A program made the translations under genes and the position numbers. DNA of 32,000 nucleotides from an uncultured Alphaproteobacteria bacterium (GTDB lineage Bacteria; Pseudomonadota; Alphaproteobacteria; Rhizobiales; Rhizobiaceae): assembly GCA_963711195.1 (NCBI GenBank), contig CAVQDK010000003.1:93423-125422 (forward strand), written 5' to 3'. The notes under the pieces are model-generated. The model ran no database searches, had not been told where the DNA came from, and worked only from the letters and a program-made list of their open reading frames with translations. This document shows, piece by piece, positions 1 through 19,938 of the stretch (position 1 is the stretch's first letter; each line of letters begins with the position of its first letter).

Positions 1-514
1 CGACAATGTGCGCAGATAGGCGAGGATCTCGGCACGTTCCTCATCGTCGCGAATGCCGTTGAAACCCATCGACGTGCCGGGCACGTGGTCCTTCGGCCGG
101 TAGAGAAATCCGTTCATTTCGGTGAACGACCAGACCTTGCCTTCGCCGTATTCCTTCAGCGCCGTGGAATAGCCAAAGTCCGGTTTGGCCGCGATCGGCT
201 TGCCGATGATGTTCCAGAGATACGGGCCGACCTTGCTTGGCCTCGCCCTCGCCGAAATTGTGGCAGGCCACGCATTTCTTGGCGACGTTCTGCCCTGCGG
301 CAGGGTCCGCGTTGGCCATCATGAAGGAGGCGTCGACGATGACCTCCTCTTCCTCGGCAACGTCCGCGACTTCCAGCGGACCGCCTTCGATCTCGTAACC
401 GGCGGTTTCCGGCACGTCGGAATGGTACAGCACTTCCGACAGCAGGTTGGCGCCGAACACCACGAAGATGGCCCCAAGAAAGGCCATTGCCAGATCGTTC
501 CAATCGAATTTCAC
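1..514 (-). pseudogene. Membrane-anchored c-type cytochrome (CycM-like), reading frame broken by one extra base near 236; 3' end runs off the window
   Basis: GTG at 514. N-terminal hydrophobic anchor [25 protein letters not shown], acidic linker, then haem motif CVACH. After GEGEA the ORF-track frame becomes nonsense. The adjacent frame reads [79 protein letters not shown] down to position 1, a typical class I cytochrome c body. Confidence 0.8.
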
Positions 515-739
515 GCCATATGCTCCCGGGCCAAAACGCCCTGTTCGTTACCACTATCAACACGTCGGTTGCGCCAGATGCCGAACGCCGCCAGTCGGTA
601 TGGCAGGCGGGTGCGGGTGGCTGTCGGGAAGCGTTTAAGTCCTTTGCCCCGTGCGGGCAACCGCTATAAGGCGGCACGGGAGCAGGTTTCGGCGGGACGA
701 ATTGACCCGCCTTTTCCTTCGCAGATGAGGAACGTGGCA

Positions 740-1478
740 ATGGCGCAGGCAGGATCGACCGTCGTGATGGTGCCCGCCCGCATGGGCTCCACCCGCCTGC
801 CGGGCAAGCCCATGGCCGAAATCGGCGGCGTGCCGATGATCGTGCAGGTCGCCCGCCGCGCCGCCGAAGCCGATGTGGGCCGCGTGATCGTGGCGACCGA
901 CGACGACGCCATCGCCGCCGCCGCTCGCGACGCGGGTTTCGAGGCTGCCATGACCCGCGCCGACCACGCCAGCGGCTCCGACCGCATCTTCGAGGCGGTG
1001 CAGGCGATCGACCCGGACGGGCACATCGATACCATCGTCAACGTGCAGGGCGACCTGCCGACGATCGACCCCGCCGCCATCCGCGCCAGCCTCGTGCCCC
1101 TGGATGACCCTGCCGTGGACTTCGCCACTCTGGCCGCGCTGATCGTGCGCGAGGAGGAGCGCGACAACGAGAACGTGGTCAAGCTGGTCGGGTCGCCGTG
1201 TCGACGAAGATCGCATGCGTGCGCTTTACTTCACCCGCGCCACCGCGCCCCACGGGCCGGGGCCGCTCTACCACCATATCGGCCTCTACGCCTGGCGGCG
1301 GTCTGCGCTTGCCCGCTTCGTCGCCCTGCCGCCCTCACCGCTGGAACTGCGGGAGCGGCTGGAACAGCTGCGCGCGCTGGAGGCTGGGATGCGCTGCGAT
1401 GCGATGGTGGTGGACACCGTGCCGCTGGGCGTCGATACCGCCGAGGACTTGGAACGGGCACGGGCCCTGTTGGCTTGA
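740..1478 (+). pseudogene. kdsB: 3-deoxy-manno-octulosonate cytidylyltransferase (CMP-KDO synthetase), frameshifted near 1199
   Basis: GAGGA lies 8 nt upstream of ATG 740. The N-terminal part [30 protein letters not shown]...NVVKLVGSP is in the frame of 740. The C-terminal part [14 protein letters not shown]...[17 protein letters not shown] is in the frame of ORF 1215..1478. Junction ccg[t]gtcgac; removing one base at ~1199 restores a single frame. Confidence 0.85.
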
Positions 1479-1489
1479 GTAATGTTGGC

Positions 1490-2336
1490 ATGAACGACAC
1501 GAGAACCGGCACCATCGCCTTTCAGGGCGAGGCGGGGGCCAATTCCGACACCGCCTGCCGCAACGTCTTCCCGCAGATGGACACGCTGCCCTGCGACACG
1601 TTCGAGGACGCCTTTGCAGCCCTTTCCGGCGGGCAGGCGGACCTCGCCATGATCCCCATCGAAAACACGCTGGCCGGTCGGGTGGCGGATATTCACGCCC
1701 TGATGCCCGATAGCGGACTGCACATCGTCGGCGAATATTTCCTGCCCATCCACTTCCACCTGATGGCACGACCCGGCGTGGCGCTGGACGACATCGAGAC
1801 CGTCTACAGCCACATCCACGCGCTCGGCCAATGCCGCGACATCATCCGCGCCAATGGCTGGCAGGGCGTCGTTGCGGGCGACACGGCGGGCGCGGCCCGT
1901 ATGGTGAGCGAGATGGAGGCGCGCAACGTGGCGGCGCTGGCACCGGAACTGGCGGCCTCGCTCTACGGCCTCGACATCGTCGAACGCCATGTGGAGGACG
2001 CCGACCACAACACGACCCGTTTCGTCGTCCTGTCCCGCACGCCGGACTGGCCGTCGGTGGATGCGGGCGACGCCATCACCACCTTCGTCTTCCGCGTCCG
2101 CAACGTGCCCGCCGCGCTCTACAAGGTGATGGGCGGCTTTGCGACCAACGGCGTCAACATGACCAAGCTGGAATCCTACCAGATCGGCGGCCAGTTCACG
2201 GCCACACGGTTCTACGCCGATATCGAAGGGCACCCGGAGCAGAAGAACGTCGCAGCTGGCGCTGGAAGAAATGGAGTTCTTCTGCGCCGAAAAGCACGTG
2301 TTGGGCGTCTATCCGGCGAGTGACTGGCGGGGGTAG
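1490..2336 (+). pseudogene. pheA: Prephenate dehydratase, frameshifted near 2252
   Basis: [20 protein letters not shown]...[10 protein letters not shown]...[14 protein letters not shown] is typical PheA (PDT domain plus ACT domain). After aac gtc [g] cag ctg the conserved tail [27 protein letters not shown] is in the next frame, with stop TAG at 2334-2336. Confidence 0.85.
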
Positions 2337-2364
2337 GGGCGGCTTCGCCTCCTCCGCTCTCGGT

Positions 2365-2450
2365 CGTCATCCTCGGGCTTGTCCCGAGGATCCGGTGAGG
2401 CGCTGCAGAACGAGAGGCTCCAGATCCCCGGGTCGAGCCCGAGGATGACG
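2365..2450. repeat. Nested inverted-repeat element downstream of pheA (REP/MITE-like hairpin module)
   Basis: cgtcatcctcgggc (2365-2378) is the exact reverse complement of gcccgaggatgacg (2437-2450). Inside the left arm a second hairpin forms: atcctcggg (2369-2377) / cttgt / cccgaggat (2383-2391). From memory, the ...CCTCGGG...CCCGAGGAT... motif resembles short intergenic repeats in alphaproteobacterial genomes; only one copy is visible here. Confidence 0.55.
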
Positions 2451-3036
2451 GCGTGTTAGGAGCCGGCGGAGTGCAATGCGCACGTGCGGAAACGCCCGCT
2501 GGCTGATTGCAATTCAGCGCGGGAGGCGCGCGCAGCAAAGCGGAGCCACACGAAAGCCATGAGCGCCACAAGCAAAGCGATCTTGCAGGCCTGAGCCTGC
2601 GAGATTGAACCGGCGGGGCATATGTGCCAGACCGTATGCCGTCGTTTCGGCGGAGAGGATCCGCGCCATTCGCCCCGCCCGGTTGGTCTGCGCTTGTCGC
2701 CTCGCTTCCCGTGCCGTCTCCGATGCAGTTTTCACTGCACCTCGACCCATGCCTCCGCGCCGAATGCATCGCACCCCGCGTCAACACTGGCACGCGAACG
2801 GAGCAGCCACCCCTCTGTTGCCAGAAAGGCCCGCCTTGCGACGGGACGGGAGTTTCACCCGCGTCTTACCCCTGAAGCCCGCGCTCCCCCCGGATGGATC
2901 GTTAACCCCACCCGACAGGACAACCGCCCCCACGCGGCGAAGATGACGGTCATGATCCGCCGGTTCCTGCGTGGGAAGGGGGTCAGGGTAGCAGGGGTGT
3001 GGGAGGGGGTGGATAAGGTTTTGGCGCAAAACACTT

Positions 3037-3116
3037 TGCGACAGAATTTTGCGACGGCCAAGCTGCTGATTTCATTTGCCTGCGACAGGCGTTGCAAAAA
3101 GATGGTTTTTGCGACA
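3037..3116. repeat. Four direct copies of a TGCGAC(A/G) core in AT-rich context, function unknown
   Basis: tttgcgacag 3035-3044 (core 3037-3043); ttttgcgacgg (core 3050-3056); cctgcgacagg (core 3081-3087); ttttgcgacaa (core 3110-3116). Three of four are preceded by a T-run. They lie just past the stop of the minus-strand gene 3121..3510. Confidence 0.35.
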
Positions 3117-3120
3117 ATCA

Positions 3121-3510
3121 CTAATCGACCCGAACAAATTCGCGCATAGTTAGACCGAGTTTCGTATGGAAGGACGTTGGGCGAGGTTGACCTTCATCGG
3201 CGGCAACAAAGCGAAATGTCGTTTTGGTCAGTTCGTAGATGGAAGGCAGGGTTTTCCCTGCATCTGCGCCGATGGAATCCACCCAGTCAATAGATTTTGG
3301 ATTGGTGTTAGCATCGAGGCTAAAAACACCTTTGAGCAATATCGTGCCGTCGGGTTTGGTTACACGGAACTCGGAGCCAACAAACGTGCAAATCGCACCA
3401 TCGGCAGAATGTTCGTCGTCTGGAGGTTCGGCAACACCATCGGCCTCAAGGTATGTTTGAGACCAATTTCCTTGAAGTCGTTTGAAATCTGCGCGGCTAT
3501 CCTTAGTCAT
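3121..3510 (-). CDS. Small soluble protein resembling the TIGR03067 (lipocalin-like, uncharacterised) family; encoded on a low-GC islet
   Basis: Intact 129-aa ORF. Motifs recalled for that family: LQGNW near the N-terminus, F.LD....PK.IDW, GKTLPSIYEL, RPTSF. Hand counts of three 60-nt lines inside the gene give 47-53% G+C, versus ~65% in the adjacent bciB line. Confidence 0.55.
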   Translation of the reverse strand: MTKDSRADFKRLQGNWSQTYLEADGVAEPPDDEHSADGAICTFVGSEFRVTKPDGTILLKGVFSLDANTNPKSIDWVDSIGADAGKTLPSIYELTKTTFRFVAADEGQPRPTSFHTKLGLTMREFVRVD

Positions 3511-3574
3511 ATCGGCTTCTTCTCATGAAAGTCGCATTATTGAATGTACGGAACTTTTCCGAACCATAACATCC

Positions 3575-4796
3575 TCACTCCCCCGCCCCCCGCTTCAACC
3601 CATACCGCTCCACCAGCCGCCAGACATGCCCCGGCACCATGGTCTTCATCCGCTTCGGCATCCGCTGGCGCAGGTGAAGCACGGTTTCCACCGCTTTCAT
3701 CTCCACCCGCGCCCGCGCGAATTCGGTGCCTGAGGGGCCGATCTTGGGCATCAGCCAGGCGGCGAGGGGGCGGATGAAATCGGGCATGGCGCGCACGGGC
3801 AGGCCACCGGCGGCGCGCTCTACGTTGGCCATGAAACCGGCCACATGCTTGTGCCGCTTGCCGCTCGTGCCGGGGGCGGAGAGGGCCACCTCGTCGCCCA
3901 GCAGGTCGAGCAATTCCTCGCCCCGCTCGTTGCGCACGATCAGCCATTGCTCCCCCTGTCCGCCCATGTAGCCCACCGTAATGTCGGCCAGCGCGTTGGT
4001 GTAATCGACGCAGGTGCGACAGGTCAGCGGAAAGAAATCCGGGCGCAGTTTGGAAATCGGCAGTTTCAGGAACGGGATCGTTTTCACCCTGCCATCGTCG
4101 AAGCGCAGTTCCACCCGGTAGTCGGCGCGAAACTCCAGATAGCTGATCGTCTCGGGCCGGTCCGACAGCAGGGCGAGAAACTCGTGAAAGTTCTCCGTCG
4201 TCGTGTTGTCGGAACAGGGCGTGCCGATGACGTAGAGCCGTTCCAGCCCCAGTTCCGCCTCCAGCGCCCGCAGCGCATAGACCTGACAGGGAATGCCGAC
4301 GATGCCGATGCGCTTGTGACCCGCCGCGATGGCCGGTTCCAGCAAAGCGAGCAGGGGCGCATAGCCCATCCGCATGCCGCGGCATTGCTTCATGTCTTCG
4401 GCGCGCGTGACGACCGCCGGCACGGGCCGCCAGCGGTCGTCCGGGTCCGGCTTCATGGCGAGGATCGCGTCCACCGCCCCCGTTTCCAGTAGCCGTTCGG
4501 CGATGCGCGTGGTGATCCCCGTCCACTGCGCGCCTTCGCGCGGCACTTTCAGCGACGCGCGGACGATGCGGCGGAAGGGCCCGAAGAACAGCTCGTCCGG
4601 GTTGGCATCCTCGTCCCGCGCGCGCCCGTGAACGGCGGTTTCGGCTGCCGGATAATCCGGCGCGATGAACTGGCAGGCCCGTCCGCACCGGGCCGGGATC
4701 GTCGGTGCGCGACACGCCGCAATCGGTGCACATCTTCCGCGGCGGGGCGGGGGCGAAGCCGGGAATTGACGGGAATTGATCGGGCGCTTGCGTCAT
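3575..4796 (-). pseudogene. bciB: Coenzyme F420 hydrogenase/dehydrogenase beta-subunit family protein, probable ferredoxin-dependent 8-vinyl reductase BciB; frameshifted near 4691
   Basis: ATG at 4796 gives MTQAPDQFPSIPGFAPAPPRKMCTDCGVSRTDDPG. After ggc[c]cgg the next frame reads RCGRACQFIAPDYPAAETAVHGRARDEDANPDELFFGPFRRIVRASLKVPREGAQWTGITT... and joins ORF 3575..4546. That ORF has FrhB-like features: IGIVGIPCQVYALR, CRTCVDYTNALADITVGYMG. 1222 nt minus 1 gives 407 codons. It sits at the PGC edge, divergent from a PpsR-type operator. Confidence 0.6.
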
Positions 4797-4838
4797 GGCG
4801 TTCGCGTCGTCCCGCACACTATACAGATGCCCATGACG

Positions 4839-4904: not shown

Positions 4905-6237
4905 ATGGCGACAAGCCCCTCCACCGACACGCCTCCAAGCCCGCCCGCCAGCCCGAACGCATGGCTGCAACGGTTCGAGACCGACCCGCGCCGCGCCTTC
5001 GTGCAGGCCGAACGCCATGCCCGCCCGCCGCTGCCCATCGACCCGCCCGGCATCTGCCAGCACCTCGTCTTCCAGACCGAACTGAAGAATTTAGCCGACG
5101 AACGCCGGTCCTGCTTCGACCTGTGCGAGAGGATGGGGCTGGTGCCGGCCAGCGAACTGACGGACCAGATCAAGGCCGAGGGAAAGGGGGCACAGGGCAA
5201 CGGCGTGACGCTGAAGTGGGAGCGCCATACGGAATGCTCCACCTACACGTTCATCGCCGAGAACATCGCCGACCGGCAGGGCTTTCAGCTGTGGACCGAG
5301 CAGGATCTGGGCTGGGAAAACGTGCCCGGCAAGCTGCTCGTCTCCATGGTCGTCGGCATCGAACGCAAGGACGATCCCGTCTGGGCGCAGTCCGGCCATT
5401 TCGACTGGGAGACCACCCCGCCGCTCTGCGCCTCCCTCGTGACCAGCGGGCTGACGCGCATCCAGTCCGACATGCAGATCGGCCCCGCCGGCAGCACCCG
5501 TTTCCTGCTCACCACGTCCAGCACCGAACCGGCCCGGCTTGGTCGCCTGCTGCAGCGGCTGATCGAGATCGAGACCTACGGCGCGTTGTGTCTGTATGCG
5601 TGGAAGGACGTGAAGGAAATCGGCCCTCTGCTGGCCGATGCCGAGGACAAGCTGGGCGGATTGACCAAAAGCCTGTCGCAGGATTCCGGCGTGTCGGACG
5701 AGACGCTGCTGGCCGAACTGACCGCCCTGTCGGCGGCGCATGAGGGAACGACGGCCAAATCCCACTTCCGTCTCAACGCGTCGCTCGCCTACCACGAGAT
5801 CGTCACCCGCCGTCTGGCGGAATTGCGCGAGGAACGCATCGAGGGCTGCCAGCGGCTGGCCAACTTCATCCAGCGCCGCATGAACCCGGCCGCGCGCACC
5901 TACCGCGCCATCCTCACCCGGCAGGAGGAGACCGCCCAGCGCATTTCGCGCGCGACCCAGCTTCTGCGCGGGCGTATCGACGTGGCCATCGGCAAGCAGA
6001 ACCAGCAGCTTGCTCTCTTCCATGAACGAGCGCGCCGAGGCGCAATACCGCCTGCAACGCACGGTGGAAGGCCTGTCCATCGTCGCCATCAGCTACTATG
6101 CGCTGGGCATTCTGGCCTATCTGGCCGCGGTCGTGGCGGGTTATGTGGACGGGGTGGGGGTGAAGGAACTGGTGGGTTTCTCCGTGCCCTTCGTTCTGGC
6201 AATGGTCTGGTTCGGCATTCGCAAAGTGAAGGCATAG
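4905..6237 (+). pseudogene. DUF3422 (COG4949) membrane-anchored protein of unknown function; frameshifted near 6009; first gene of the bchI-bchD-bchO transcription unit
   Basis: KWERHTECSTYTF motif and overall layout recalled for DUF3422. The body is in the frame of ORF 4776..6461 up to ...AIGKQNQQ. The conserved C-terminal membrane part LLSSMNERAEAQYRLQRTVEGLSIVAISYYALGILAYL...RKVKA* is in the frame of ORF 6010..6237 (junction cag cag [c] ttg). ATG 4905 is chosen because it lies downstream of the operator; 4827, 4833 and 4854 are alternatives. The stop is 6 nt before the bchI ATG. Confidence 0.65.
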
Positions 6238-6243
6238 GCAGAC

Positions 6244-7285: not shown

Positions 7286-9077
7286 ATGCAGCCGGTTGCG
7301 ATGCAGGCCGCAGACGACCGCACCGCCTTCGAGACCGGCCTGTGGCAGGATGCCTGTCTGGCCGCCGATATTCTGGCGCTCCTCGTCGCCGATGGTCGCC
7401 TGCGCCACGCGGGGATCGTCGTCAGGGGCCATGCCGGACCGGTGCGCGACCTGTGGATGGAGCGGTTGCAAGCCGCGCTTCCGAACCATGTCGCCATCCG
7501 CACCGTCCCCACCGGCATCGCGCCAGACCGCCTGCTCGGCGGTCTCGACCTGTCGGCCACGCTGGCGGCGGGCCGCAAGGTCGTGGCGCAAGGGCTGTTG
7601 GCGCAGGCCGACGGGCATATGCTGCTGCTGCCGATGGCGGATATCTGCGAAGCGGAAACGGCGGCGCTGATCGGCAGCCGCGATGGACAACGGCGCGGTG
7701 CGGGTGGAGCGCGACGGGGTCAGCCGCAGCGAGCCTGCCCGTTTCGGACTGATCGCGTTCGACGAAAGCGCGCCGGACGAGGACGGTATCGCCAAGGGCC
7801 TGCAGGACCGGCTGGCCCTGCATATCGACCTCACCGAAATCAGCATTCGCACGGCACGCAACCGGTTTCGCCATGCCAGCGCACCAGCCGCTTCGGCAGA
7901 TATCGGCGACGATCAGCGCAGCCAGATCTGCACCTATGCTGCCTCCCTCGGTCTCCATTCCCTCCGCCCGGCCATGCAGGCCGTCGAACTGGCCCGCGCC
8001 CATTGCCGCCTGCTGGGTCGCAGCGAAGTGGAGGATGCGGACGTGGCCGCCGCCGTCCGGCTGGGTCTGGCCCATCGCGCGCGATACGTCGCCGCCCCAC
8101 CGCCGCCGGAAGAGGCCGATGCGCAGCCCGAACCGCAACAGGCACCGGACGACGGCAAAGCCGCGCAGGACGACGAGCGAGAATCCACCGCCTCCGCCGA
8201 TGTGCCCGACACGATGCTGCTCGACGCTCTCGCGTCCGCCTTGCCGCCCGGCCTGCTGGCAGACCTGAAAAGCGCCGCCGCCGCGCGATCGTCCCGCGCA
8301 AAGGCCGGACGCAGGGGTGCGCGGCGCGATGCGGCCAGACGGGGCCGACCGCTGACCAGCCGCAAGGGCGAATTGCGCGCCGGAAAACGTCTCGACCTGA
8401 TGGCGACGCTGCGCACCGCTGCCCCATGGCAGAAATTGCGCAGGACGACCGCCCGTGGCGACCGCCACATCCACATCCGTCCGGCCGATTTCTGCATCCG
8501 CCGCTACCGCGAGCATACGGAAACATCGACCATCTTCGTGGTGGACGCTTCCGGTTCCACCGCCATGAACCGGCTGGCGGAAGCCAAGGGGGCCATCGAA
8601 CTGCTGCTGGGCGAAACCTATGCCCGCCGCGACCACGTGGCGCTCGTCAGCTTTCGCGGGCGGGAGGCGGAATTGCTGCTGTCTCCAACCCGCGCACTGG
8701 CGCGCGCGCGCAAATCGCTGGCAGCCCTGCCCGGTGGCGGGGGCACGCCGCTGGCGAGCGGATTGCGCACCGCGCTTGCAGTCGCCGACGAAGAGGCGCG
8801 CCGGGGCAGGGAACCGTCCATCATTCTCATGACCGATGGCAGCGCCAATGTGGGGGCGGACGGCACCGGCGGGCGCAAGCAGGCGGGGCAGGATGCCGAG
8901 ACCGCCGCCCGCGCCATCGCCGCCGCCGGGTTCCGCTGCATCCTCATCGATGTCAGCCGCCAGCCCCAGCCCCGCGCGAAAAATCTCGCTGCCCTCATGG
9001 ACGCGACCTATGTGCCCATGCCGCTGGCCAGTTCGCGCAGCCTGTCGGACGCGGTCAAAGCGGGGCTGGCGTCGTGA
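7286..9077 (+). pseudogene. bchD: Magnesium chelatase subunit D, frameshifted near 7673
   Basis: The ATG is 1 nt after the bchI stop. The N-terminal AAA-like part runs to ...EAETAALI. After atc[g]gca the next frame (ORF 7683..9077) continues AAAMDNGAVRVERDGVS..., then the acidic/proline linker and the C-terminal vWA domain (IFVVDASGSTAMNRL...ILMTDGSANV). 1792 nt minus 1 gives 597 codons. Confidence 0.9.
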
Positions 9078-9952
9078 ACTGGACGCGCGACAGGGCCGGT
9101 TGGCCGAATGCGGATGCCAGCCGCATCGTCGAGATCGACCGGATGCGCTGGCACGTGCAGCAGATGGGCAGCGGTCCGCCGGTTCTGCTGCTGCACGGCA
9201 CCGGCGCGACCACCCATTCCTACGCCGCTCTCATGCCGTTGCTCGCAGAGCGGTATGCAGTGACCGCCATCGACCTGCCCGGCCATGGCTTCACCGGCCG
9301 CATCACCAGCGGCAGCCCCGCCTTGCCGAACGTGGCACGCGCAATTGCAGGCCTGCTCGACAGGGAAGGTATCGTGCCGCAAGCCGTCGTCGGTCATTCG
9401 GCAGGCGCGGCCATCGCGGTCCACATGAGCGGCGAAAAGCTGGTGGACCCCAAGGCGCTCGTCGCCATCAACGGCGCGTTCTATCCCTTTCCCGGTTTCG
9501 CCGGACACATCTTTCCCGCCGCCGCAAAACTGCTGTTCTTGAATCCCTTCGCGCCGCGCCTGTTCGCCTTCGGTGCGGGCAGGCGTCGGCGTGTGGTGGA
9601 CCTGATCGCCTCCACCGGCTCCACCCTCGACGAGCGGGGCATCGACCTTTACCAGCGCGCGCTGACTTCGAGCGACCACGTGGAGGGGACGCTGGCGATG
9701 ATGGCGCACTGGAACCTGAACGACATGCAGCGCCGGTTGGCCGCCCTCGACCTGCCCCTGCTGCAGATCGTCGGTGGCAGGGACGCCACGATCGATCCCG
9801 CCGCCGCCAACAGGACGGCGGACGTGCTACAGCACGGCGAAATGCGCACGTTCGACGGGTGTGGCCACCTGGTCCACGAGGAGAAGCCTGCCGAGGTGGC
9901 GGAAACCATTGCAGAATTTCTCGCGCGCCACGGCATCGCCCGACACGAATGA
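9074..9952 (+). CDS. bchO: Magnesium chelatase accessory protein BchO (alpha/beta hydrolase)
   Basis: GTG overlaps the bchD stop (GTGA). RWHVQQMGSGPPVLLLHGTGATTHSY, nucleophile elbow GHSAGAA, C-terminal GCGHLVHEEKP. Position after bchD as in other PGCs. Confidence 0.85.
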   Translation: MNWTRDRAGWPNADASRIVEIDRMRWHVQQMGSGPPVLLLHGTGATTHSYAALMPLLAERYAVTAIDLPGHGFTGRITSGSPALPNVARAIAGLLDREGIVPQAVVGHSAGAAIAVHMSGEKLVDPKALVAINGAFYPFPGFAGHIFPAAAKLLFLNPFAPRLFAFGAGRRRRVVDLIASTGSTLDERGIDLYQRALTSSDHVEGTLAMMAHWNLNDMQRRLAALDLPLLQIVGGRDATIDPAAANRTADVLQHGEMRTFDGCGHLVHEEKPAEVAETIAEFLARHGIARHE

Positions 9953-9968
9953 TGCTTGCGCAAATTAA

Positions 9969-10000
9969 TTGGACACTGATAGTGTCCAATTATGACGACA
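9969..10000. promoter_or_regulatory. CrtJ/PpsR-type operator overlapping the crtI start codon, embedded in a 21-bp perfect palindrome
   Basis: tgtccaattatgacgaca at 9983-10000 is TGTC-N10-GACA and contains the crtI ATG (9992). ttggacact-gat-agtgtccaa at 9969-9989 is a perfect 9+3+9 palindrome. No Shine-Dalgarno-like purine run lies before ATG 9992. Confidence 0.65.
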
Positions 10001-11545
10001 CACGTTCCCCCGTCCGACCTCGTACCCTCGGTTCCGATCGGTAGGCCAGACCGGCCTCACGCGGTCGTCATCGGCTCGGGCTTCGGCGGTCTGGCAGCCG
10101 CCGTCCGCCTCGGTGCTCGCGGCTACCGGGTCACGGTGCTGGAAAAGCTGGAACAGGCGGGTGGACGCGCCAGCGTCTTCCGGCAGGACGGTTTCACCTT
10201 CGACGCCGGCCCCACCATCATCACCGCGCCGTTCTGCTTCGAGGAATTGTGGGCCCTGTGCGGGCGCACCATGGCCGACGATGTGACCCTCGTGCCGATG
10301 GAGCCGTTCTATCGTATCCGCTTCGACGATGGCGAAACCTTCGCCCCCTGTTCCGACACGGCGCAGATGCACGCCGAGATCGCCAAGTTCAATCCCGACG
10401 ATATTGCGGGCTACGAGGCCTTCATGAAGGTCAGCAAGAAGCTGTACGATTTCGGCTTCGGCGAGATGGGGGACAAGTCCTTCGAGAACGTGTCCACTAT
10501 GGGCCGTATGCTGCCGAAGCTGGTCACGAACCGCGCCGACCGGTCGGTCTATGCGCAGGTTTCGAAATACATCAAGGACGAGCGCCTGCGTATCGCGCTC
10601 AGTTTCTATCCGCTCTTCGTCGGCGGCAATCCGCTGCGCGTCACCTGCATCTACAACCTCATCCGCCATCTGGAAGGCACTTACGGCGTGCATTTCGCGA
10701 TGGGCGGGACAGGCTCGCTCGTCGACGGGCTGGTGGGGCTTATCGAGGGGCAGGGCGGATCGGTCGTGCTGAACGCCCCGGTCGACCGTATCATCGTCAA
10801 GGACGATGCCGCCTGCGGCGTGCGGCTGGAAGGCGGCGAGATCATCGATGCCGATGTGGTCGTCTCCAACGCCGATGCCGTGTGGGCCTATGAGAACCTG
10901 ATGCCGGAGCGGCCTGCCAAGCGCTGGACAGGCAAGAAGCTGTCGAAGGTGCACCATTCGATGAGCCTGTTCGTGTGGTATTTCGGAACGGACCGTCAGT
11001 TCGAAGACGTCGACCACCACACGATCCTGATGGGCCCTCGCTACGAGGAATTGCTGCGCGACATCTTCGACCGCAAAATTCTGGCGGAAGATTTCAGCCT
11101 CTACCTGCATCGCCCCACCGCGACCGACCCGTCGCTGGCACCGGATGGGTGCGATGCCTTCTACGTGCTCTCCCCCGTGCCCCATCTGGAGGCCGATGTG
11201 GACTGGACGGTGGAGGCAGAACGCTACCGCGCGAAAATCGAGCAGCGGCTGGAGGACACCATCATGCCCGGCCTGTCCGGCTCGGTGGTGACATCGAAAA
11301 TCATGACGCCGCTCGACTTCGAAGACCGTCTCAACGCCCCGTTCGGGGCTGCCTTCGGGCCGGAGCCACGGCTGCTGCAAAGCGCATGGTTCCGTCCACA
11401 CAATGTCAGCGAAGAGGTGGACAACCTCTATCTCGTGGGCGCAGGCACCCATCCCGGCGCAGGCGTGCCCGGGGTCGTGACCTCGGCGAAGGTGCTCGAC
11501 CGGGTCGTGCCCCATGGCGACAGCGTGGTGCGCACCGATGGCTGA
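9992..11545 (+). CDS. crtI: Phytoene desaturase
   Basis: Intact 517 aa. AVVIGSGFGGLAAAVRLGARGYRVTVLEK FAD fold, C-terminal LYLVGAGTHPGAGVPGV. Confidence 0.93.
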   Translation: MTTHVPPSDLVPSVPIGRPDRPHAVVIGSGFGGLAAAVRLGARGYRVTVLEKLEQAGGRASVFRQDGFTFDAGPTIITAPFCFEELWALCGRTMADDVTLVPMEPFYRIRFDDGETFAPCSDTAQMHAEIAKFNPDDIAGYEAFMKVSKKLYDFGFGEMGDKSFENVSTMGRMLPKLVTNRADRSVYAQVSKYIKDERLRIALSFYPLFVGGNPLRVTCIYNLIRHLEGTYGVHFAMGGTGSLVDGLVGLIEGQGGSVVLNAPVDRIIVKDDAACGVRLEGGEIIDADVVVSNADAVWAYENLMPERPAKRWTGKKLSKVHHSMSLFVWYFGTDRQFEDVDHHTILMGPRYEELLRDIFDRKILAEDFSLYLHRPTATDPSLAPDGCDAFYVLSPVPHLEADVDWTVEAERYRAKIEQRLEDTIMPGLSGSVVTSKIMTPLDFEDRLNAPFGAAFGPEPRLLQSAWFRPHNVSEEVDNLYLVGAGTHPGAGVPGVVTSAKVLDRVVPHGDSVVRTDG

Positions 11546-13333: not shown

Positions 13334-14247
13334 GGCCGCCGCGGCATGCGAAACGGAAGCAGGCACCGCACCCACGGCTTCGAGAAACGGTCGAGGTCGA
13401 GGCTTTCGTGCACGGCGGTGACCCGCTCGTCGTCGAACGACGTGGCAATCCGCGAGCGTGTGTAGAACGGCGTGTCCTCCAGCATCGCCAGCGTCTTTGC
13501 CTGCGTGCTGCCTGCAACGGGTGTTTCGCGCGCAACGCGCCAGATGGGGCCGGGGGGAAGCTTTTGCCGTGCCGGTAGCGGGATATGGCGCACCGTCGCC
13601 TTCTCGTCGAACCGCAGCGCCAGATGCCGTTCCTCGCCGTCCCGGGCAATGGCATCGTAGTAGACGCCTGCCCCGTCCGGCAGGGCGGCACGGGACCAGT
13701 TCCACGACCGGAACCCGTCTTCCAGCGGCTCCGACCCCCAGTTGGAATCGATATAGGCCTCCCCCGACCAGTCTCCGCCGGGTGATGCCATGGCGACGGT
13801 TGCCCGCGCGGCAGGCGCGATGGGCTGCCAGAAATGGCGTCCGTTCGCGTCCAATGCAAACGGCGCGGTGGTGCGAGACGGTGCGCTGACGCGGATCGTC
13901 CCCTTCACCTTGCGGGGGATGGGCACCGTCCACTCGTCGATCTCGATGACCAGATCGTCCCCGTCCCAGCGCAGGCTGCTTGGGCCGATATCGAGTCGGC
14001 GTGGTGCCTGCGTAAGCGCCGACCGGCCCCGCTCCGTCATCGTCCATCGATTAAAGCCCGGACCGTAGAGACCGACGTTGAGCGCCACGTGGTTGCGCGG
14101 ATTCGTGCGGCCCGACCAGGCGTAATAGGGCGAGAAGACGGAGCCGATCAGCGCGATGATGGAGAAGCCGTAGCGCCCGCAATCGCTGATCGCATCCGCA
14201 TACCACCAGGCATAGCCGCCCGCGGGAACGTCTATGTCGAAGCGTGG
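13330..14247 (-). CDS. crtC: Hydroxyneurosporene synthase (acyclic carotenoid 1,2-hydratase); start codon unresolved
   Basis: PRFDIDVPAGGYAWWYADAISDCGRYGFSIIALIGSVFSPYYAWSGR... through ...RCLLPFRMPRRP* is CrtC-like over ~305 aa. No ATG/GTG/TTG occurs in frame within ~45 codons upstream of PRFDIDV. The 5' end overlaps the crtD stop (14232-14234). 14247 is the first confidently homologous codon, not a start. Confidence 0.82.
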   Translation of the reverse strand, partial: PRFDIDVPAGGYAWWYADAISDCGRYGFSIIALIGSVFSPYYAWSGRTNPRNHVALNVGLYGPGFNRWTMTERGRSALTQAPRRLDIGPSSLRWDGDDLVIEIDEWTVPIPRKVKGTIRVSAPSRTTAPFALDANGRHFWQPIAPAARATVAMASPGGDWSGEAYIDSNWGSEPLEDGFRSWNWSRAALPDGAGVYYDAIARDGEERHLALRFDEKATVRHIPLPARQKLPPGPIWRVARETPVAGSTQAKTLAMLEDTPFYTRSRIATSFDDERVTAVHESLDLDRFSKPWVRCLLPFRMPRRP

Positions 14248-15698
14248 TCCGCCATGATCCGCTCCGCCGCCAGCATCCCCGAAAGGGTTGCCATCGGCAC
14301 GCCCGCCCCCGGATGCACGCTGCCCCCTGCCAGATACAGTCCGCCGATCCGGGTCTTGGTGCCCGACCGTGCGAAGGATGCCGTCCAGCCGTGGGAGGCC
14401 CGCCCGTAGAGCGCTCCGCCGGAGCCGGGAAACAGCGTCTCGAAATCCGCCGGTTGTGTCGCGGTCAATCGGCCCGCGTCCTCGTTCAGGTCGAGGCCAC
14501 ACCGGCGCAGGTGCGAGAATGTCGTCTCTTTGCATAGGGCCAGTTCCTCGTCGGTCAGGCGGCGTTCGTCCCCGAAGGCGGGGGCGTTGATCAGGCACAG
14601 CAGCCGTTCCGGACCATCGGGAACGGCACTGTCAGAAGTCCTGTCCCCGGTTCTGTCCTGCGCGCAGATATAGACGGTTGGCTCGTCCGGCATCTGCCTT
14701 TGGCGGAAGATGCGGTCGAACTCCCGTCTGTAGTCCGACGAGAAGAAGACGTTGTGATGCTGCAATGCAAAGCCGGACGCCGTCGCGGTGCCTGTCCATG
14801 TCAGCGCCGACAGGGAGCGTTTGGCGGGCGGTACGGTCAGGCTCCGCGCCTTGCGTCCTGCGAAGTCGTTCTGCGAAAGGCGCGAGGCGTCGCCGTTATA
14901 GACGACCGTGTCCGCCTCCAGCACGTCGCCGCTGGCCAGCCGAACGCCCGTCACCCGCCCGTCGACGGGTTTCCAGCCCCGCCACGTCGCTCCCGTGCGA
15001 ATATCCGCGCCCTGCGCCGAAGCCACCCGCGCCATGGCCAAAGCCAATTCGTGCATCCCGCCCCGCACGGTCCACACGCCCTCCCGCTCCACATGGGCGA
15101 TGAGCATGAGCGTTGCGGGCGCTTGATACGGGGAGGAGCCGACATAGGTCGCGTATCGCCCGAACAGCTGCCGCAGCCGGTCGTCTGGAAAATAGTCGCC
15201 GAGCGCCTGCCACAGAGTATGGAATGGGCGCAGCGCCAGCAGCTTCCCGGGATTGCCAAGCCCGATGCGCTGACCGAGACCGATGGGAGAGGGCCGGGGG
15301 GCTGCGATGAACGTGTCTCTCAGCGTTTCGAACACTGCTTTGGAATCGGCGCAGAACCGACGATAGCCGGCAGCGTTGTCGCCGCCGAAGACCCGCTCGA
15401 CCTCCGCTTCCGTACGCGCCTGATCGGCGAACAGGTCGAACGGCCCTGTATCGGCCCAACCGTGCCGGGCGAGAACGCTGGCCCGATCGACGCCCACCTC
15501 ACGGTCCACCGACGTGCCCGCAAGCGCGAAGAGGCGGTCGAATACCCATTTCATCGTGAGCACGGTCGGCCCCGCGTCGATCGCGTGACCATCGACATCC
15601 ACCCGGCGCATCTTGCCGCCCGGTGCGGCTTCCTTTTCCAGCACGAGCACCTTGCGCCCTTGCGCCGACAGGGCGATGGCCGCCGAAAGCCCGGCCAT
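14232..15698 (-). CDS. crtD: Methoxyneurosporene / hydroxyneurosporene dehydrogenase (C-3,4 desaturase); N-terminus unresolved
   Basis: 488-aa ORF with a CrtI-family body and C-terminal GGSVHPGAGVPMA. ATG 15698 falls inside the dinucleotide-binding motif. The in-frame codons just upstream read GRTIIIGAG-MAGLSAA, but that frame has no start between the stop at 15768-15770 and 15698. Confidence 0.85.
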   Translation of the reverse strand: MAGLSAAIALSAQGRKVLVLEKEAAPGGKMRRVDVDGHAIDAGPTVLTMKWVFDRLFALAGTSVDREVGVDRASVLARHGWADTGPFDLFADQARTEAEVERVFGGDNAAGYRRFCADSKAVFETLRDTFIAAPRPSPIGLGQRIGLGNPGKLLALRPFHTLWQALGDYFPDDRLRQLFGRYATYVGSSPYQAPATLMLIAHVEREGVWTVRGGMHELALAMARVASAQGADIRTGATWRGWKPVDGRVTGVRLASGDVLEADTVVYNGDASRLSQNDFAGRKARSLTVPPAKRSLSALTWTGTATASGFALQHHNVFFSSDYRREFDRIFRQRQMPDEPTVYICAQDRTGDRTSDSAVPDGPERLLCLINAPAFGDERRLTDEELALCKETTFSHLRRCGLDLNEDAGRLTATQPADFETLFPGSGGALYGRASHGWTASFARSGTKTRIGGLYLAGGSVHPGAGVPMATLSGMLAAERIMADHAST

Positions 15699-15774
15699 TC
15701 CGGCACCGATGATGATTGTCCGACCAGGAATTGATCGACGCTCCGAAACAGGCTGTTGATTTCGCCGTCAATAT

Positions 15775-15818
15775 CGTCAACATTATTGGACAATTCAAGC
15801 TGTCAAATCGATTGGACA
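15775..15818. promoter_or_regulatory. Tandem CrtJ/PpsR-type operator in the crtD / crtE divergent region
   Basis: CGTC-N10-GACA at 15775-15792 (one mismatch) and perfect TGTC-N10-GACA at 15801-15818 (tgtcaaatcgattggaca), separated by 8 bp. This is the same architecture as the bchC site. On the minus strand, TTGACA (15806-15801) could serve as a -35 for crtD. Confidence 0.7.
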
Positions 15819-15853
15819 CCATCGATTTCGACGCGGAAGCGGGGGGACGATCG

Positions 15854-16724
15854 ATGGAAAGTGCTGCACGGATCGAACAGGCGCTGGAAGCCGCCATCGC
15901 GCGGGCAACCGCCAAACCCTGCCCGCCGAAACTGGCCATGGCCGTCCATCACGCCCTGTTTCCCGGCGGTGCCCGGGTGCGCCCGCAACTGACCTTGGCG
16001 GTGGCCGAATCCTGCGGCGCGCGGGACGATGCGCTTGTGGACAGCGCCGCTGCCGCCATCGAGATGCTGCACTGCGCCTCCCTGGTCCACGACGATCTGC
16101 CCTGTTTCGACGACGCCGATATCCGCCGCGGCAAGAAGAGCGTCCATACGCTCTACGGCGAGCCGATCGCCGTCCTGACCGGCGATGCGCTGATCGTGGA
16201 AGCCTTCAACACCGTGGCGCTTGCCGCCGCCCGGAACCCCGAACGGCTTGCACCGCTCATCACATGCATCACGAAAGCCGTCGGCATGCCCGGTGGAATT
16301 GTCGCCGGGCAGGCATGGGAGAGCGAAGACCGAGATCGACGTCACCGAATATCACCGTGCGAAGACCGGCGCCCTGTTCGTCGGCGCGGTGAGTGCCGGT
16401 GCCATCGCGGCGGGGCAGGATCCCGCCCAGTGGCGCCCGCTCGGCACCTATATCGGGCAGGCCTACCAGCTGGCCGACGATCTACTCGACGCCGTGGGCG
16501 GCTCCGAGGAATGCGGCAAGCCGGTGGCGCAGGACACGGCCAATGCGCGCCCCAACGCGGTGCTGCAATTCGGCCTGCAGGCCACCATCCGGCGGCTGAA
16601 GGACACCGTCGAATTGGCCGCGTCTTCGGTGCCGGACTGCGATGGTGCCGACGGCCTGCGCGGGTTGATCGTGGCGCAGGCGACCCGGCTCGTACCGGCG
16701 GAACTGGCCAAACAGGCCGCCTGA
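15854..16724 (+). pseudogene. crtE: Geranylgeranyl diphosphate synthase, frameshifted near 16328
   Basis: ATG 15854 is preceded by a G-rich SD. LVHDDLPCFDDADIRRG (first DDxxD) is in the first frame up to ...GQAWESE. After gaa[g]acc the next frame (ORF 16221..16724) reads TEIDVTEYHRAKTGALFVGA...GQAYQLADDLLD (second DDxxD). 871 nt minus 1 gives 290 codons. Confidence 0.88.
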
Positions 16725-16743
16725 CCCGTCCGGTCTCACCGAC

Positions 16744-17864
16744 GTGAGCCTCACCACCCGCTGGATCGCGTTCCGCAACCTCTGTCTGCGGTCGCCCCGC
16801 TTCCACGCCTTCGCCACGCGCTTTCCCCTCACCCGCCCGATCGTGCGCAAGCGCCAGAGCGAACTGTTCGACCTCGTCTCCGGCTTCGTCTACTCGCAAA
16901 TCCTGTCGGCATGCATCGAACTCGACGTGCTGGCCAAGGTCGGCGACGGGATCGGCCTGACGGATCTGGCGACGACGAATCGGTTTGCCGGACGACGAGA
17001 CCCGCCGGCTGGCCGATGGAGCCGCCTCGCTACGACTGTTGCAACATGACGACGGCCTCTACCGGCTGGGCGATCTCGGCGCGGCGCTCACGGCCAATCC
17101 TGGCGTCATCGCCATGATTCGCCACCACGGCGCGTTCTACCGCGACATGGCCGATCCGGTGGCCATGCTGCGCTCCGGCAGGGGCGAGACCCACCTGTCG
17201 CGCTATTGGGATTATGCGCGCAGCGGCAACCCTGCCGACAGCGACGCCGATGCCGTGCGCGCCTATTCGCAGCTGATGGCCGAGAGCCAGGCGATGGTCG
17301 CAGCCGAGGTGAACGCTGTCATCGACTTTTCGCAGCACCGCACACTGCTGGATGTGGGGGGCGGACACGGTGCCTTCCTGAAAGCCGTCGCGGAGCGGAA
17401 CCCTGCGCTGCGCCTGCAACTGTTCGACCTGCCCGCAGTGGTGGCACAGGCCGAGCCGGAACTTGCAGCAGCAGGACTGGCGGACCGGTCCGAAACTTTC
17501 GGCGGTTCCTTCTTCGACGACCCGCTTCCCCGCGGCGCGGACCTCGTTTCTCTCGTGCGCATCCTGCACGACCACGACGACGAACCGGCTTCGGCGATCC
17601 TGAAAGCCGTGTTCGACGCGTCTGCCCGGCGGCGGCAGGCTCATTGTGTGCGAACCCATGTCCACCGGCGGTTCGGCCCACCGCATCAGCGACGCCTATT
17701 TCAACTTCTATCTCCACGCCATGGGCAGCGGCCGTCCGCGCCCGCCGCAAATGCTCATCGCCATGCTGGAGCAGGCCGGATTCGAGGACGTGACGTTGGT
17801 GAAAACCCGTTCGCCTTTAATCACCAGCGTGATCTCGGCTCGTCGACCCGCAGATAATGTGTAG
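16744..17864 (+). pseudogene. crtF: Demethylspheroidene / hydroxyneurosporene O-methyltransferase, two frameshifts (near 16972 and 17621)
   Basis: Three consecutive frames carry the homology. Frame 1: GTG 16744 ...PLTRPIVRKRQSELFDLVSGFVYSQILSACIELDV...LTDLA. Frame 2: RRIGLPDDETRRLADGAASLRLL...LLDVGGGHGAFL (SAM motif)...ILKAVFDA. Frame 3: LPGGGRLIVCEPMSTGG...GFEDVTLVKTRSPLITSVISARRPADNV*. Junctions gcg[a]cga and gcg[t]ctg. 1121 nt minus 2 gives 373 codons. Confidence 0.85.
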
Positions 17865-17903
17865 AGTTTGCTTGACATTAAAAAGTGTCAAAATACTATG
17901 ACA
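17860..17903. promoter_or_regulatory. bchC promoter with tandem CrtJ/PpsR operators
   Basis: TGTA-N10-GACA at 17860-17877 and TGTC-N10-GACA at 17886-17903, 8 bp apart. TTGACA (17872-17877), a 16-nt spacer and TACTAT (17894-17899) form a near-consensus sigma-70 promoter. Its -35 and -10 each lie inside one palindrome, the arrangement established for the Rhodobacter bchC promoter. Confidence 0.8.
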
Positions 17904-17960
17904 CATGAATGGGGGCCAATTCGACCGGCAATCGCGCCGGGGCCAGATTGGGAAGAGCGC

Positions 17961-18900
17961 ATGCACACACGTGCCGTCATCTTTGAAAAGCCGGGCAAGC
18001 TGGTCGTCGACGATGTGGATCTGAACGATCCCTCCGCTCGACGATCTGACCGTCGCGGTGGACTGGAGCGGCATCAGCACCGGCACGGAGCGCCTGTTGT
18101 GGACTGGCGACATGCCGGCCTTCCCCGGCATGGGATATCCCCTCGTGCCCGGCTACGAGACGGTCGGTACCGTCGTGGATGCACCCTCAAAACACGCTAC
18201 CCGTATCGGCGAGCGGGTCTATGTGCCCGGTTGCGCAGCTTACAAGGACGTGCGCGGCCTGTTCGGCGGGTCCGCTTCCACGCTGATCGTCGACGCTGCC
18301 AAGGCCAAGCCGGTCGATGCCTCCATCGGCAGCGACGCCGTTCTCATGGCGCTTGCCGCAACGGCCCACCATGCAATTGCCGCCGAGGGCGCGGCTCTGC
18401 CGGACCTGATCGTCGGCCACGGCATTCTGGGCCGCCTAACGGCCCGCCTGACACTGGCTCTGGGTGGCACACCGACCGTCTGGGAAACGAACGCGGCGCG
18501 CCGTGCCACCACTGATTCCTACCGTGTCGTCGATCCGGCCGAAGATGCTGGCACCGCCTATTCCGCGATCTACGACGTGAGCGGCGACAGCGCCATTCTC
18601 GACACGTTGGTCGGTGGCTTGTCCCGCGGTGGCGAGATCGTGCTGGCGGGCTTCTACAGCAAGCGGCTCGATTTCGCCTTTCCGCCCGCCTTCATGAAAG
18701 AGGCCCGCATCCGCATCGCCGCCGAATGGCAGGACGCCGATCTGGAGGCCGTTCGACGCCTGTTGGGCGAGGGCAAACTGTCTCTCGCCGGTCTCGTCAC
18801 CCACCGCAGCACGGCGGACGACGCCGCGCAGGCCTACGACACCGCATTCGGCGACCCCGCCTGCCTCAAGATGGTTCTCGACTGGAGCACGAAGCAATGA
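17961..18900 (+). pseudogene. bchC: Bacteriochlorophyllide a dehydrogenase (3-hydroxyethyl oxidase), frameshifted near 18033
   Basis: MHTRAVIFEKPGKLVVDDVDLNDP is in the first frame. After ccc[t]ccg the next frame (ORF 18058..18900) reads PLDDLTVAVDWSGISTGTERLLWTGDMPAFPGMGYPLVPGYE..., a zinc-type alcohol dehydrogenase fold. 940 nt minus 1 gives 313 codons. Confidence 0.9.
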
Positions 18901-19938
18901 GCGAAGGTTTTACTCTCAACACGGACGCCGAACCGCAGGTCGAGGCGGAAGCAGACGCCGCCGACATCTTCGCCCTGCTGAAGGAAGAGGCCGATACCGA
19001 GCCGGACGCCGTTCACACCGGTGAAGTGACCAAGGAAACCCAGGTCATCGCCATCTATGGCAAGGGCGGCATCGGCAAGAGCTTTTCGCTGGCCAACCTC
19101 TCCTACAACCTCGCCCAGAGCGGCAAGAAGGTTCTGCTGATCGGTTGCGACCCGAAGTCCGACACGACCTCGCTGCTGTTCGGCGGCAAGTCCTGCCCCA
19201 CCATCATCGAGACCTCGTCGCGCAAGAAGGCCGCCGGTGAGGACGTCGCCATCGGCGACGTGTGCTTCAAGCGCGATGGTGTCTACGCCATGGAACTGGG
19301 CGGCCCCGAAGTCGGTCGCGGGTGCGGCGGGCGCGGCATCATCCACGGTTTCGAGCTGCTGGAGAAAGCTCGGCTTCCACGAGTGGGATTTCGACTATGT
19401 GCTGCTCGATTTTCTCGGCGACGTGGTCTGCGGCGGCTTCGGCCTGCCGATCGCCCGCGACATGTGCCAGAAGGTCATCGTCGTCGCCTCCAACGACCTG
19501 CAATCGCTCTACGTCGCCAACAATGTCTGCTCGGCGGTCGAATATTTCCGCAAGCTCGGCGGCAATGTCGGCGTGGCCGGCATTCTCATCAACAAGGACG
19601 ACGGCACCGGCGAAGCGGAAGCCTTTGCCAAGGCGGTGAAGATTCCGGTTCTGGCGTCCATTCCCCAGCACGAGGATATCCGCCGCAAGTCCGCCAAATA
19701 CGAGATCGTCGGCGATCCTGCAGGCGAGTGGGGTCCGATGTTCACGGACCTTGCCAACAACATGATGACCGCTCCGCCGCGCCAGCCCGCGCCGCTGACG
19801 CAGGACGGCCTGCTCGCCCTGTTTTCCGACGACGACACCGGCGCCAACTACGTGCTGGTGCCCGCCGCTGCCGAGGACATGTGCCCCCCTTCGATGATGA
19901 AGAAGGAGTCCCTGGAGGTTGTCTACGACAACGTCTGA
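18897..19938 (+). pseudogene. bchX: Chlorophyllide a reductase iron protein subunit X, frameshifted near 19367
   Basis: The ATG overlaps the bchC stop (ATGA). IAIYGKGGIGKSF P-loop, GCDPKSDTT, GGPEVGRGCGGRGIIHGFELLEK in the first frame. After gag aa[a]g the next frame (ORF 19237..19938) reads LGFHEWDFDYVLLDFLGDVVCGGFGLPIARD... Confidence 0.92.

Follow-up and report, generated by a model that had tools for sequence, protein, structure and literature searches.

Errors in assembled genomes, genuine gene decay and programmed recoding can each leave conserved genes split between reading frames. Frameshift-causing indels are well known in long-read consensus sequence (Sereika et al. 2022, PMC9262707). 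Flye merges strains of ~97.6-98.7% identity into one consensus (Strainberry, PMC8302730), and polishers misbehave at heterozygous sites, where coding sequence may suffer (Hapo-G, PMC8092372). Here we describe a 32,000-nucleotide stretch of bacterial DNA (the window) in which genes of a photosynthesis cluster and its neighbours are broken by single extra bases.

The window resembles long-read assembly indel errors (PMC9262707; proovframe preprint 10.1101/2021.08.23.457338) in its 1-nt splits, in their repair by a single base and in their varying density, and the defect recurs in a related metagenome contig. However, the Nanopore errors of PMC9262707 are homopolymer-associated indels, whereas those of the window are non-homopolymer insertions at synonymous sites. 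Collapsed-strain consensus errors (PMC8092372, PMC8302730) are likewise local and can damage coding sequence, and the codon-phase bias of the window fits an origin in polymorphism; a +1 outcome from alleles written in tandem is our own proposal and was not found in the Hapo-G or Strainberry papers. Pseudogenes and phototrophy loss in aerobic anoxygenic phototrophs also involve several frameshifted bch and crt genes, but unlike genuine loss the window lacks both mixed lesion types and substitutional decay, and it has breaks in kdsB and pheA as well. Programmed frameshifting of the prfB/RF2 type shares the +1 direction, although in the window there is no conserved shift site, the shift is not kept in orthologues and the eleven sites are unrelated.

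Overall organization of the window

The window is best explained as a photosynthesis gene cluster that is intact, with acsF present and pufC absent, and that is flanked by housekeeping genes, in a relative of Ahrensia and Pseudahrensia. The organism is probably an aerobic anoxygenic phototroph. Exact matching of the CrtI, PufM and BchI proteins gave zero hits; in scans of genome and metagenome contigs CrtI reached at most 68% amino-acid identity, and restored CrtF reached at most 70%. Close relatives were reached by restored PheA only (92-93%), a plasmid collection gave distant matches only, and a chimeric query of CrtD, CrtE, BchC, PufL and PufM returned two matches, both distant. The six left-hand extra bases were placed at the DNA level with close relatives at 82-84% nucleotide identity, of which there were two: the contig L164, which belongs to a related species and comes from ENA metagenome assembly ERZ25039505, and L165. 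A literature search found no paper for accessions ERZ25039505 or SRR28062978, and the window had zero Rfam or tRNA matches.

An earlier note, made from the sequence alone, held that one extra base breaks the frame at each of eleven sites, and alignments to protein orthologues and to the DNA of relatives bear this out. The frameshift-aware protein-to-DNA alignment that it proposed as a check shows a single 1-nt insertion per aligned site, with homology continuing in the adjacent frame. Dynamic programming of protein against DNA, with four to six orthologues per gene, called a 1-nt insertion with zero residues missing at each of eight sites: bciB (4691-4697), DUF3422 (6003-6009), bchD (7673-7679), crtE (16328), crtF (16972-16981 and 17621), bchC (18039) and bchX (19365). 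The breaks in the cytochrome c gene (236), kdsB (1199) and pheA (2252-2255) are visible in three-frame translation and supported by DNA alignment with L164 and L165. The sites thus exist, but some of the coordinates first given shift: the best placements are 4698 rather than ~4691 and 18038/18039 rather than 18033, together with 2254/2255 and 7675/7676. The five right-hand sites were placed by profile scoring only, with those in crtE and bchX ambiguous. L164 and L165 lack the extra bases, and kdsB and pheA are intact in both; by this comparison the extra bases are derived insertions in the window.

All 11 uncompensated lesions are +1, with zero nonsense codons and zero larger indels. Deletion of one base had been said to restore a full-length protein of normal size, and matches to NCBIfam models and the lengths of homologues agree. 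The restored reading frames are of orthologue length without internal stops, and restored KdsB, PheA, BchD, BchC and BchX each match their NCBIfam model in one uninterrupted stretch.

Extra bases in the flanking genes

The window begins within a gene for a membrane-anchored c-type cytochrome (1..514, minus strand), which is truncated by the window start to its N-terminal 171 codons. Its extra base at 236, a C on the plus strand and AA[G]C on the coding strand, makes the frame jump from -2 to -3 and is absent from both L164 and L165; the site is non-synonymous (Asn/Lys). The restored cytochrome matches the CycA cytochrome c-550 model NF043008 with an E value of 4e-20, under the curated cut-off of the model.

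The normally essential kdsB (740..1478, plus strand) carries an extra T at 1199 (CCG/T GTC). Here the window equals L164 plus one base, whereas L165 is five bases longer, or two codons once the window is corrected. Restored KdsB has 245 residues, the same length as L164 KdsB as called, and residues 4-244 align with positions 3-243 of 248 of NF003948 (383 bits, over the curated cut-off). In pheA (prephenate dehydratase; 1490..2336, plus strand), the extra base lies at 2254/2255 (GCA/G), where the window reads GCAG against GCA in L165 and GCG in L164; at 2255 it is one base longer than both. Restored PheA (281 residues) aligns over residues 5-280 with positions 4-279 of 283 of NF008866, over the curated cut-off, and its relatives have 281 (93% identity) and 282 residues (92% identity), with L164 PheA called at 281. 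The DUF3422 gene (4905..6237, plus strand) contains an extra base at 6009 ([C]TTG), placed exactly against L164 DNA.

Extra bases in the photosynthesis genes

bciB, encoding an F420-hydrogenase-beta-like divinyl reductase (3575..4796, minus strand), has an extra A on the plus strand at 4698, GA[T]C on the coding strand; the placement is exact, with 24 bases on either side identical to L164. bchD, for the Mg-chelatase D subunit (7286..9077, plus strand), has its extra base at 7675/7676 (GGC/A), and L164 DNA has one base fewer than the window at 4698, 6009 and 7675. Residues 17-593 of the 596 in restored BchD align with positions 5-582 of 585 of NF009943 (660 bits, over the curated cut-off).

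Farther right, all on the plus strand, the extra base of crtE (GGPP synthase; 15854..16724) falls within 16326-16335, its placement ambiguous within 1 bit. crtF (16744..17864) carries two, at 16971-16979 and at 17620-17622 (GCG/T or T/CTG); an alignment of restored CrtF (372 residues) with homologues of 366-372 residues covers 97-100% of its length. The extra base of bchC (17961..18900) is at 18038/18039 (GCT/C), and that of bchX (18897..19938) within 19364-19368 (GAG/A AAG). Restored BchC aligns over residues 3-307 of 312 with positions 2-308 of 308 of TIGR01202, and restored BchX over residues 49-330 of 346 with positions 1-289 of 296 of TIGR02016, both over the curated cut-offs.

Distribution and sequence context

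The distribution is uneven, as had been noticed before, and the genes listed as clean lack a lesion (clustering P = 0.004-0.007). Dynamic programming against orthologues found no frame break in bchI, bchO, crtI, crtB, tspO and crtC, nor in bchZ, pufLM, the Nudix/idi gene, hemA, puhE, acsF and puhCBA. The tract 21555..32000, which comprises these last genes with the whole of pufBALM, is one in which no frame break was detected. By statistics devised after the pattern had been seen, P = 0.004 for zero sites in the last 12.6 kb and P = 0.007 for the two largest gaps added together. L166, a contig of another sequencing run that was found through exact PufA/PufB matches, is 98.6% identical to the window over 22857-24107, an overlap within the clean region; the two differ in length by a single nucleotide, in the pufB-pufA spacer. 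The presence of a window-like population in a second public run shows that conspecific variants exist.

Most sites lie outside homopolymers, in agreement with the earlier observation. A run of three, the longest near any site, is in reach at bciB and bchX only, and the DNA of relatives puts the bciB base outside its run. A homopolymer-error model of the 454, Ion Torrent or Nanopore type was accordingly rejected, since at most two of the 11 sites are near such a run. A random-insertion model predicts 44% homopolymer extensions, 28% insertions that are the synonymous alternative of a neighbouring base and 28% others. The 11 extra bases comprise eight of the synonymous-neighbour kind (for example GCA/G, GA[T]C and [C]TTG), one other, two ambiguous and no definite homopolymer extension; P = 0.003 for at least eight of 11 synonymous neighbours and P = 0.006 for zero homopolymer extensions among nine resolved sites, both post hoc statistics. 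The pattern suggests that a consensus step may have written the two alleles of a strain polymorphism in tandem.

A methylation-motif model was also rejected. GATC occurs within 8 nt of four of the 11 sites (P = 0.026, uncorrected), a signal lost once the testing of several motifs is considered, and the GATC at 4698 arises from the insertion itself. GANTC and CCWGG showed no association with the eleven sites.

Artefact or inactivation

The earlier note preferred an insertion-biased assembly or base-calling artefact, and the data support this. The insertion-only spectrum, the lack of decay, the broken kdsB and the recurrence in L164 together make it very unlikely that the bases are biological. 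L164 itself has six frameshifts, each of them +1 and none -1 (one in bciB, three in bchD, and one each in bchO and crtB), all at positions different from those in the window; from its 'contig_N' names and these frameshifts only, L164 would be a long-read assembly. On the sequence evidence, the extra bases are very probably errors of the deposited consensus and not part of the genome of the organism.

The fallback of the same note, a freshly inactivated photosynthesis cluster, finds no such support. Were the bases real, a burst of +1 insertions would have disabled the cluster and its neighbours only very recently while the genome was otherwise left intact, which we consider very improbable. Phototrophy is indeed patchy in the group, as L165 has kdsB-pheA without an adjacent photosynthesis cluster. 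However, the lesions are indifferent to essentiality, breaking kdsB and pheA alongside bch and crt genes, and in place of the mixed spectrum of pseudogenes there are only +1 shifts (P = 0.0005 at 50:50, a statistic devised after seeing the pattern) without in-frame stops. Conserved residues show no excess of change: in columns conserved at 95% or more, broken genes deviate at five of 515 and intact genes at eight of 853, both at the median of other genomes. Third-position bias is also kept downstream of every break, with third codon positions accounting for 0.61-0.86 of the differences from L164 upstream and 0.56-0.95 downstream in the restored frame. Moreover, bacterial mutation is usually deletion-biased and its 1-bp indels concentrate in homopolymers, both of which are absent here, and +1 lesions recur at different sites in a relative that was assembled independently. 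That a free-living phototroph population carries a burst of at least eleven real +1 insertions at synonymous positions, both in photosynthesis genes and in kdsB, has hardly any probability on the sequence evidence; if true, it would point either to a so far unknown mutational process that makes insertions alone and is in its earliest phase, or to some means of reading through +1 shifts. Such reading through, by programmed +1 ribosomal frameshifting or transcriptional slippage, would suit shifts that all run in one direction, but the eleven contexts have no motif, slippery site or in-frame stop in common, no homopolymer exceeds three at any site, and none of the orthologues examined, including the relatives at 82-84% nucleotide identity, is frameshifted. 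Recoding is effectively refuted by these comparisons, its probability being negligible.

If the bases are artefacts, their most likely source would be a mixed-population assembly, probably a long-read metagenome, in which strains that occur together were merged into a single contig; at some of the positions where these strains differ, consensus building or polishing would then write both alleles in succession rather than pick one, adding one base. Strain polymorphisms in coding sequence are mostly synonymous, so the extra base should be the synonymous alternative of its neighbour and adjoin the third position of a codon or, in Leu codons, the first. The model would account for insertions only, for the avoidance of homopolymers, for essential genes being affected equally and for the lack of other decay, and clustering would reflect tracts rich in polymorphism or thinly covered. 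Given an artefact, we put this mechanism at roughly an even chance; its exact description was not found in the literature. Alternatively, random read-level insertion errors, unrelated to polymorphism, may have been left in a thinly covered or unpolished consensus. Examples would be PacBio CLR-like reads and low-quality read ends. Insertion-only, non-homopolymer, clustered lesions are the residue expected of low coverage, and the arguments against real decay hold equally; yet random errors should ignore codon phase and often extend homopolymers, unlike the extra bases of the window. The synonymous-neighbour bias also appears in L164, where four to five of the six extra bases follow it (GCG/A, GGC/T, GTC/T, CGG/C), and an origin in random errors is rather unlikely.

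The breakage is biologically unimportant, the cluster is to be read as intact, and the value of the case lies mainly in a warning about data quality. Annotators would call Mg-chelatase, chlorophyllide reductase, BchC, CrtE, CrtF, KdsB and PheA pseudogenes; in an uncorrected assembly completeness would be underestimated, and loss of phototrophy possibly inferred wrongly. If the tandem-allele signature holds, such frameshifts in mixed-population assemblies could be recognized and repaired without a reference, and would also mark the location of strain variation.

Additional lesions in crtD and bchY

Two lesions were absent from the earlier note. The crtD frame (14232..15698, minus strand) is open, but probably holds a compensated -1/+1 pair, called by five of six orthologues in dynamic programming, with a base lost around 14986-14995 and another gained around 14961-14965 (CGT/C). 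Between the two shifts 'ATWRGWKPV' stands in place of the family-like 'SDVAGLETR', and repair raises the score against a 93-sequence CrtD HMM from 722.4 to 731.9 bits (+9.5). The earlier statement that no site behaves as a deletion therefore stands for the uncompensated lesions and probably fails for crtD. The pair implies one deletion or more, which sits awkwardly with tandem alleles and with an artefact, as does the non-synonymous site at 236.

bchY (19919..21558, plus strand) has no stop codon at the expected place. Homology to orthologues stops at ~21496 and frame 2 stays open to 22087, so that the ORF 19919-22087 runs into bchZ. A net -1, two +1 insertions and a lost stop codon are candidates for this 3' lesion. 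At the start of bchZ there is an ATGA (21555-21558) whose TGA is in frame 1; the bchY and bchZ genes of Pseudahrensia share a 4-nt overlap.

Gene content and synteny

The window has a G+C content of 65% and opens on a minus-strand c-type cytochrome gene, truncated by the window start, followed by kdsB and then pheA, which form the left flank of a photosynthesis gene cluster. The cluster begins with bciB (minus strand), a DUF3422 gene, bchI, bchD, bchO, crtI, crtB, tspO, crtC and crtD (the last two on the minus strand), continues through crtE, crtF, bchC, bchX, bchY, bchZ, pufB, pufA, pufL and pufM, and ends on the minus strand with a Nudix/idi gene, hemA, puhE, acsF, puhC, puhB and puhA. Between pheA and bciB lies a 1.26-kb spacer (2343-3599) of lower G+C content (57% over 3001-4000), whose sole convincing open reading frame (3121-3510, minus strand, 129 residues) has no match in Pfam. 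The best syntenic genomes, Pseudahrensia aquimaris and a marine MAG, are collinear with the window nearly base for base at a CrtI identity of only 68%, and none of the metagenome contigs scanned was nearer than these.

Single extra bases at eleven sites

Each cluster gene was aligned with four to six orthologues by a protein-versus-DNA dynamic programme that permits frame changes of one or two nucleotides. The programme returned one event of a single extra nucleotide per site, consistent among orthologues, at 4691-4697 in bciB, 6003-6009 in the DUF3422 gene, 7673-7679 in bchD, 16328 in crtE, 16972-16981 and 17621 in crtF, 18039 in bchC and 19365 in bchX, and, crtD and bchY apart (see below), no consistent frame change in the remaining cluster genes. 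Three-frame translations placed the frame jumps of the cytochrome c gene, kdsB and pheA at 236, 1199 and about 2252, respectively. Local alignments of the orthologue-tested sites revealed no missing residue at any junction, and the lesions are thus +1 insertions rather than -2 deletions.

When one base is removed per site, the restored proteins exceed the curated cut-offs of their NCBIfam models, each model being covered from end to end by one continuous match (for example KdsB, 383 bits; PheA, 463; BchD, 660; BchC, 420; BchX, 412), and the restored CrtF of 372 residues aligns over 97-100% of its length with homologues of 366-372 residues. All eleven sites are therefore confirmed, and the single extra base that the earlier note had read at each of them is borne out by frameshift-aware alignment, by three-frame translation and by the full-length proteins recovered. 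As a list of lesions, that note was slightly incomplete, since it missed a pair of frame changes in crtD and the 3' end of bchY.

In crtD (minus strand, 14961-14995), five of six orthologue alignments place a -1 change followed about 30 nucleotides later by a +1 change. The approximately nine in-frame codons between them (ATWRGWKPV, within GATWRGWKPV) are unlike the CrtD family, whereas the shifted reading, SDVAGLETR, fits the conserved motif V.EI...GR..GV. Repair of the pair raises the score against an HMM of 93 CrtD sequences by 9.5 bits, from 722.4 to 731.9, and crtD probably carries a compensated -1/+1 pair. In bchY, homology stops at about 21496 with no stop codon after it, and the reading frame runs on uninterrupted as far as 22087. 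The usual ATGA overlap with the start of bchZ is present at 21555-21558 but out of frame with bchY, and 58 nucleotides separate the end of bchY homology from the bchZ ATG, compared with a 4-nucleotide bchY-bchZ overlap in Pseudahrensia. This points to one of three changes at the bchY 3' end: a net -1, a double +1 insertion or loss of the stop codon.

Close relatives and exact placement

A search with the restored PheA returned two proteins that are 93% and 92% identical to it, both encoded on contigs of the ENA metagenome assembly ERZ25039505 (L164 and L165); these contigs are 82-84% identical to the window in nucleotides. L164 has the layout of the window (cytochrome-kdsB-pheA-bciB-DUF3422-bchID and onward), with pheA and bciB adjacent and the 1.26-kb spacer absent. 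At position 236 (C) the window is one base longer than both contigs, and at 2254/5 it reads GCAG against GCA in L165 and GCG in L164, again one base more than either. At 1199 (T) the window exceeds L164 by a single base, while L165 has two additional codons there. The left 2.3 kb contains no further coding indel outside multiples of three relative to these contigs, and the L164 gene calls for KdsB (245 residues) and PheA (281 residues) equal the restored window lengths. Comparison with L164 DNA also places the extra base at 4698 (A) in bciB, 6009 (C) in the DUF3422 gene and 7675/6 in bchD.

On L165 (contig_18909, around 9249-10849), a cytochrome c gene and unrelated genes come after kdsB and pheA, and no photosynthesis cluster adjoins them; presence of the cluster at this locus therefore varies among close relatives.

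A third contig, of 1.25 kb and from another run (L166; Logan SRR28062978_200153), is 98.6% identical to window positions 22857-24107 and encodes exactly the PufA and PufB of the window. Conspecific variants at about 1.4% divergence thus exist in nature, a degree of difference at which strains would be expected to collapse. The sole indel in the 1251 aligned bases lies in the pufB-pufA spacer (23617-23620), GGGG in the window and GGG in L166, which may be another consensus error or natural variation.

Artefact or inactivation

The earlier note had preferred an artefact, with a recently inactivated photosynthesis cluster as its fallback. All eleven uncompensated lesions are +1 (P = 0.0005 if insertions and deletions were equally frequent) and they are clustered along the window (P = 0.004-0.007), although the statistics on the lesion pattern were drawn up after the pattern had been seen. 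The restored frames contain no stop codon and, in the orthologue alignments, no larger indel. Nor is there an excess of change at conserved residues: across alignment columns with a conservation of 95% or more, taken from genes that have 46-161 orthologues, the broken genes deviate at 5 of 515 columns and the intact genes at 8 of 853, both equal to the median of other genomes. Similarly, the fraction of window-L164 differences that fall on third codon positions, counted in the restored frame, is alike upstream (0.61-0.86) and downstream (0.56-0.95) of the breaks. The broken genes include kdsB and pheA, which lie outside the photosynthesis cluster, and because such genes are also affected, the clustering is not predicted by selection on phototrophy alone.

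L164, which belongs to another species and comes from a separate assembly, shows six +1 frameshifts and no -1 frameshift; the six lie in bciB, three times in bchD, and in bchO and crtB (about 4912-4918, 9540, 9856, 10130-10133, 11032 and 13725-13740), where the window is intact; its gene calls accordingly split bchD and fuse crtB to tspO. Insertion-only lesions at different sites in two relatives are explained much better by the type of data than by biology. These six lines of evidence speak against the fallback reading and support the artefact: the extra bases are very probably not in the organism, real inactivation is highly improbable, and recoding of real extra bases is more improbable still. 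The genes of the window should be treated as intact.

Codon phase and a proposed mechanism

The extra bases had been described as lying mostly outside homopolymers, and that description holds. Insertions with flanks identical to the relative read GA[T]C, [C]TTG or GCA|G, and profile scoring assigns those at crtF 16971-16973, crtF 17620-17622 and bchC 18038-18039 to classes holding only unlike neighbouring bases, leaving no definite homopolymer extension. In nearly all cases the extra base adjoins a third codon position (or a leucine first position) and would be a synonymous substitution for the base there, as in CCG|T, GCA|G, GAT|C, C|TTG, GGC|A, GCG|T and GCT|C. Random insertions simulated in the restored genes gave 44% homopolymer extensions, 28% synonymous neighbours and 28% others; the observed sites comprise eight synonymous neighbours, one other (AA[G]C, Asn/Lys) and two ambiguous cases. 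By tests devised post hoc, the probability of at least 8 synonymous neighbours among 11 is 0.003 and that of no homopolymer among the 9 resolved is 0.006. Four to five of the six extra bases in L164 behave in the same way.

Codon phase is invisible to read-level noise but not to natural polymorphism, from which we infer that co-occurring strains may have been collapsed into one consensus and that, at some SNPs, both alleles would have been emitted in tandem. Flye merges strains that are about 97.6-98.7% identical (PMC8302730), indels in long-read consensus sequences are a common source of frameshifts (PMC9262707), and heterozygous sites are a known difficulty for polishers, coding sequence included (PMC8092372). 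The tandem-allele outcome itself was not found described in any paper, and we therefore offer it as a hypothesis. Within our strong overall preference for an artefact, about half the weight goes to this mechanism and most of the rest to generic low-coverage insertion errors.

GANTC is scarce in the window, with 30 occurrences in 32 kb against 185 of GATC, and a GATC lies within 8 nucleotides of four of the eleven frameshift sites (P = 0.026, uncorrected).
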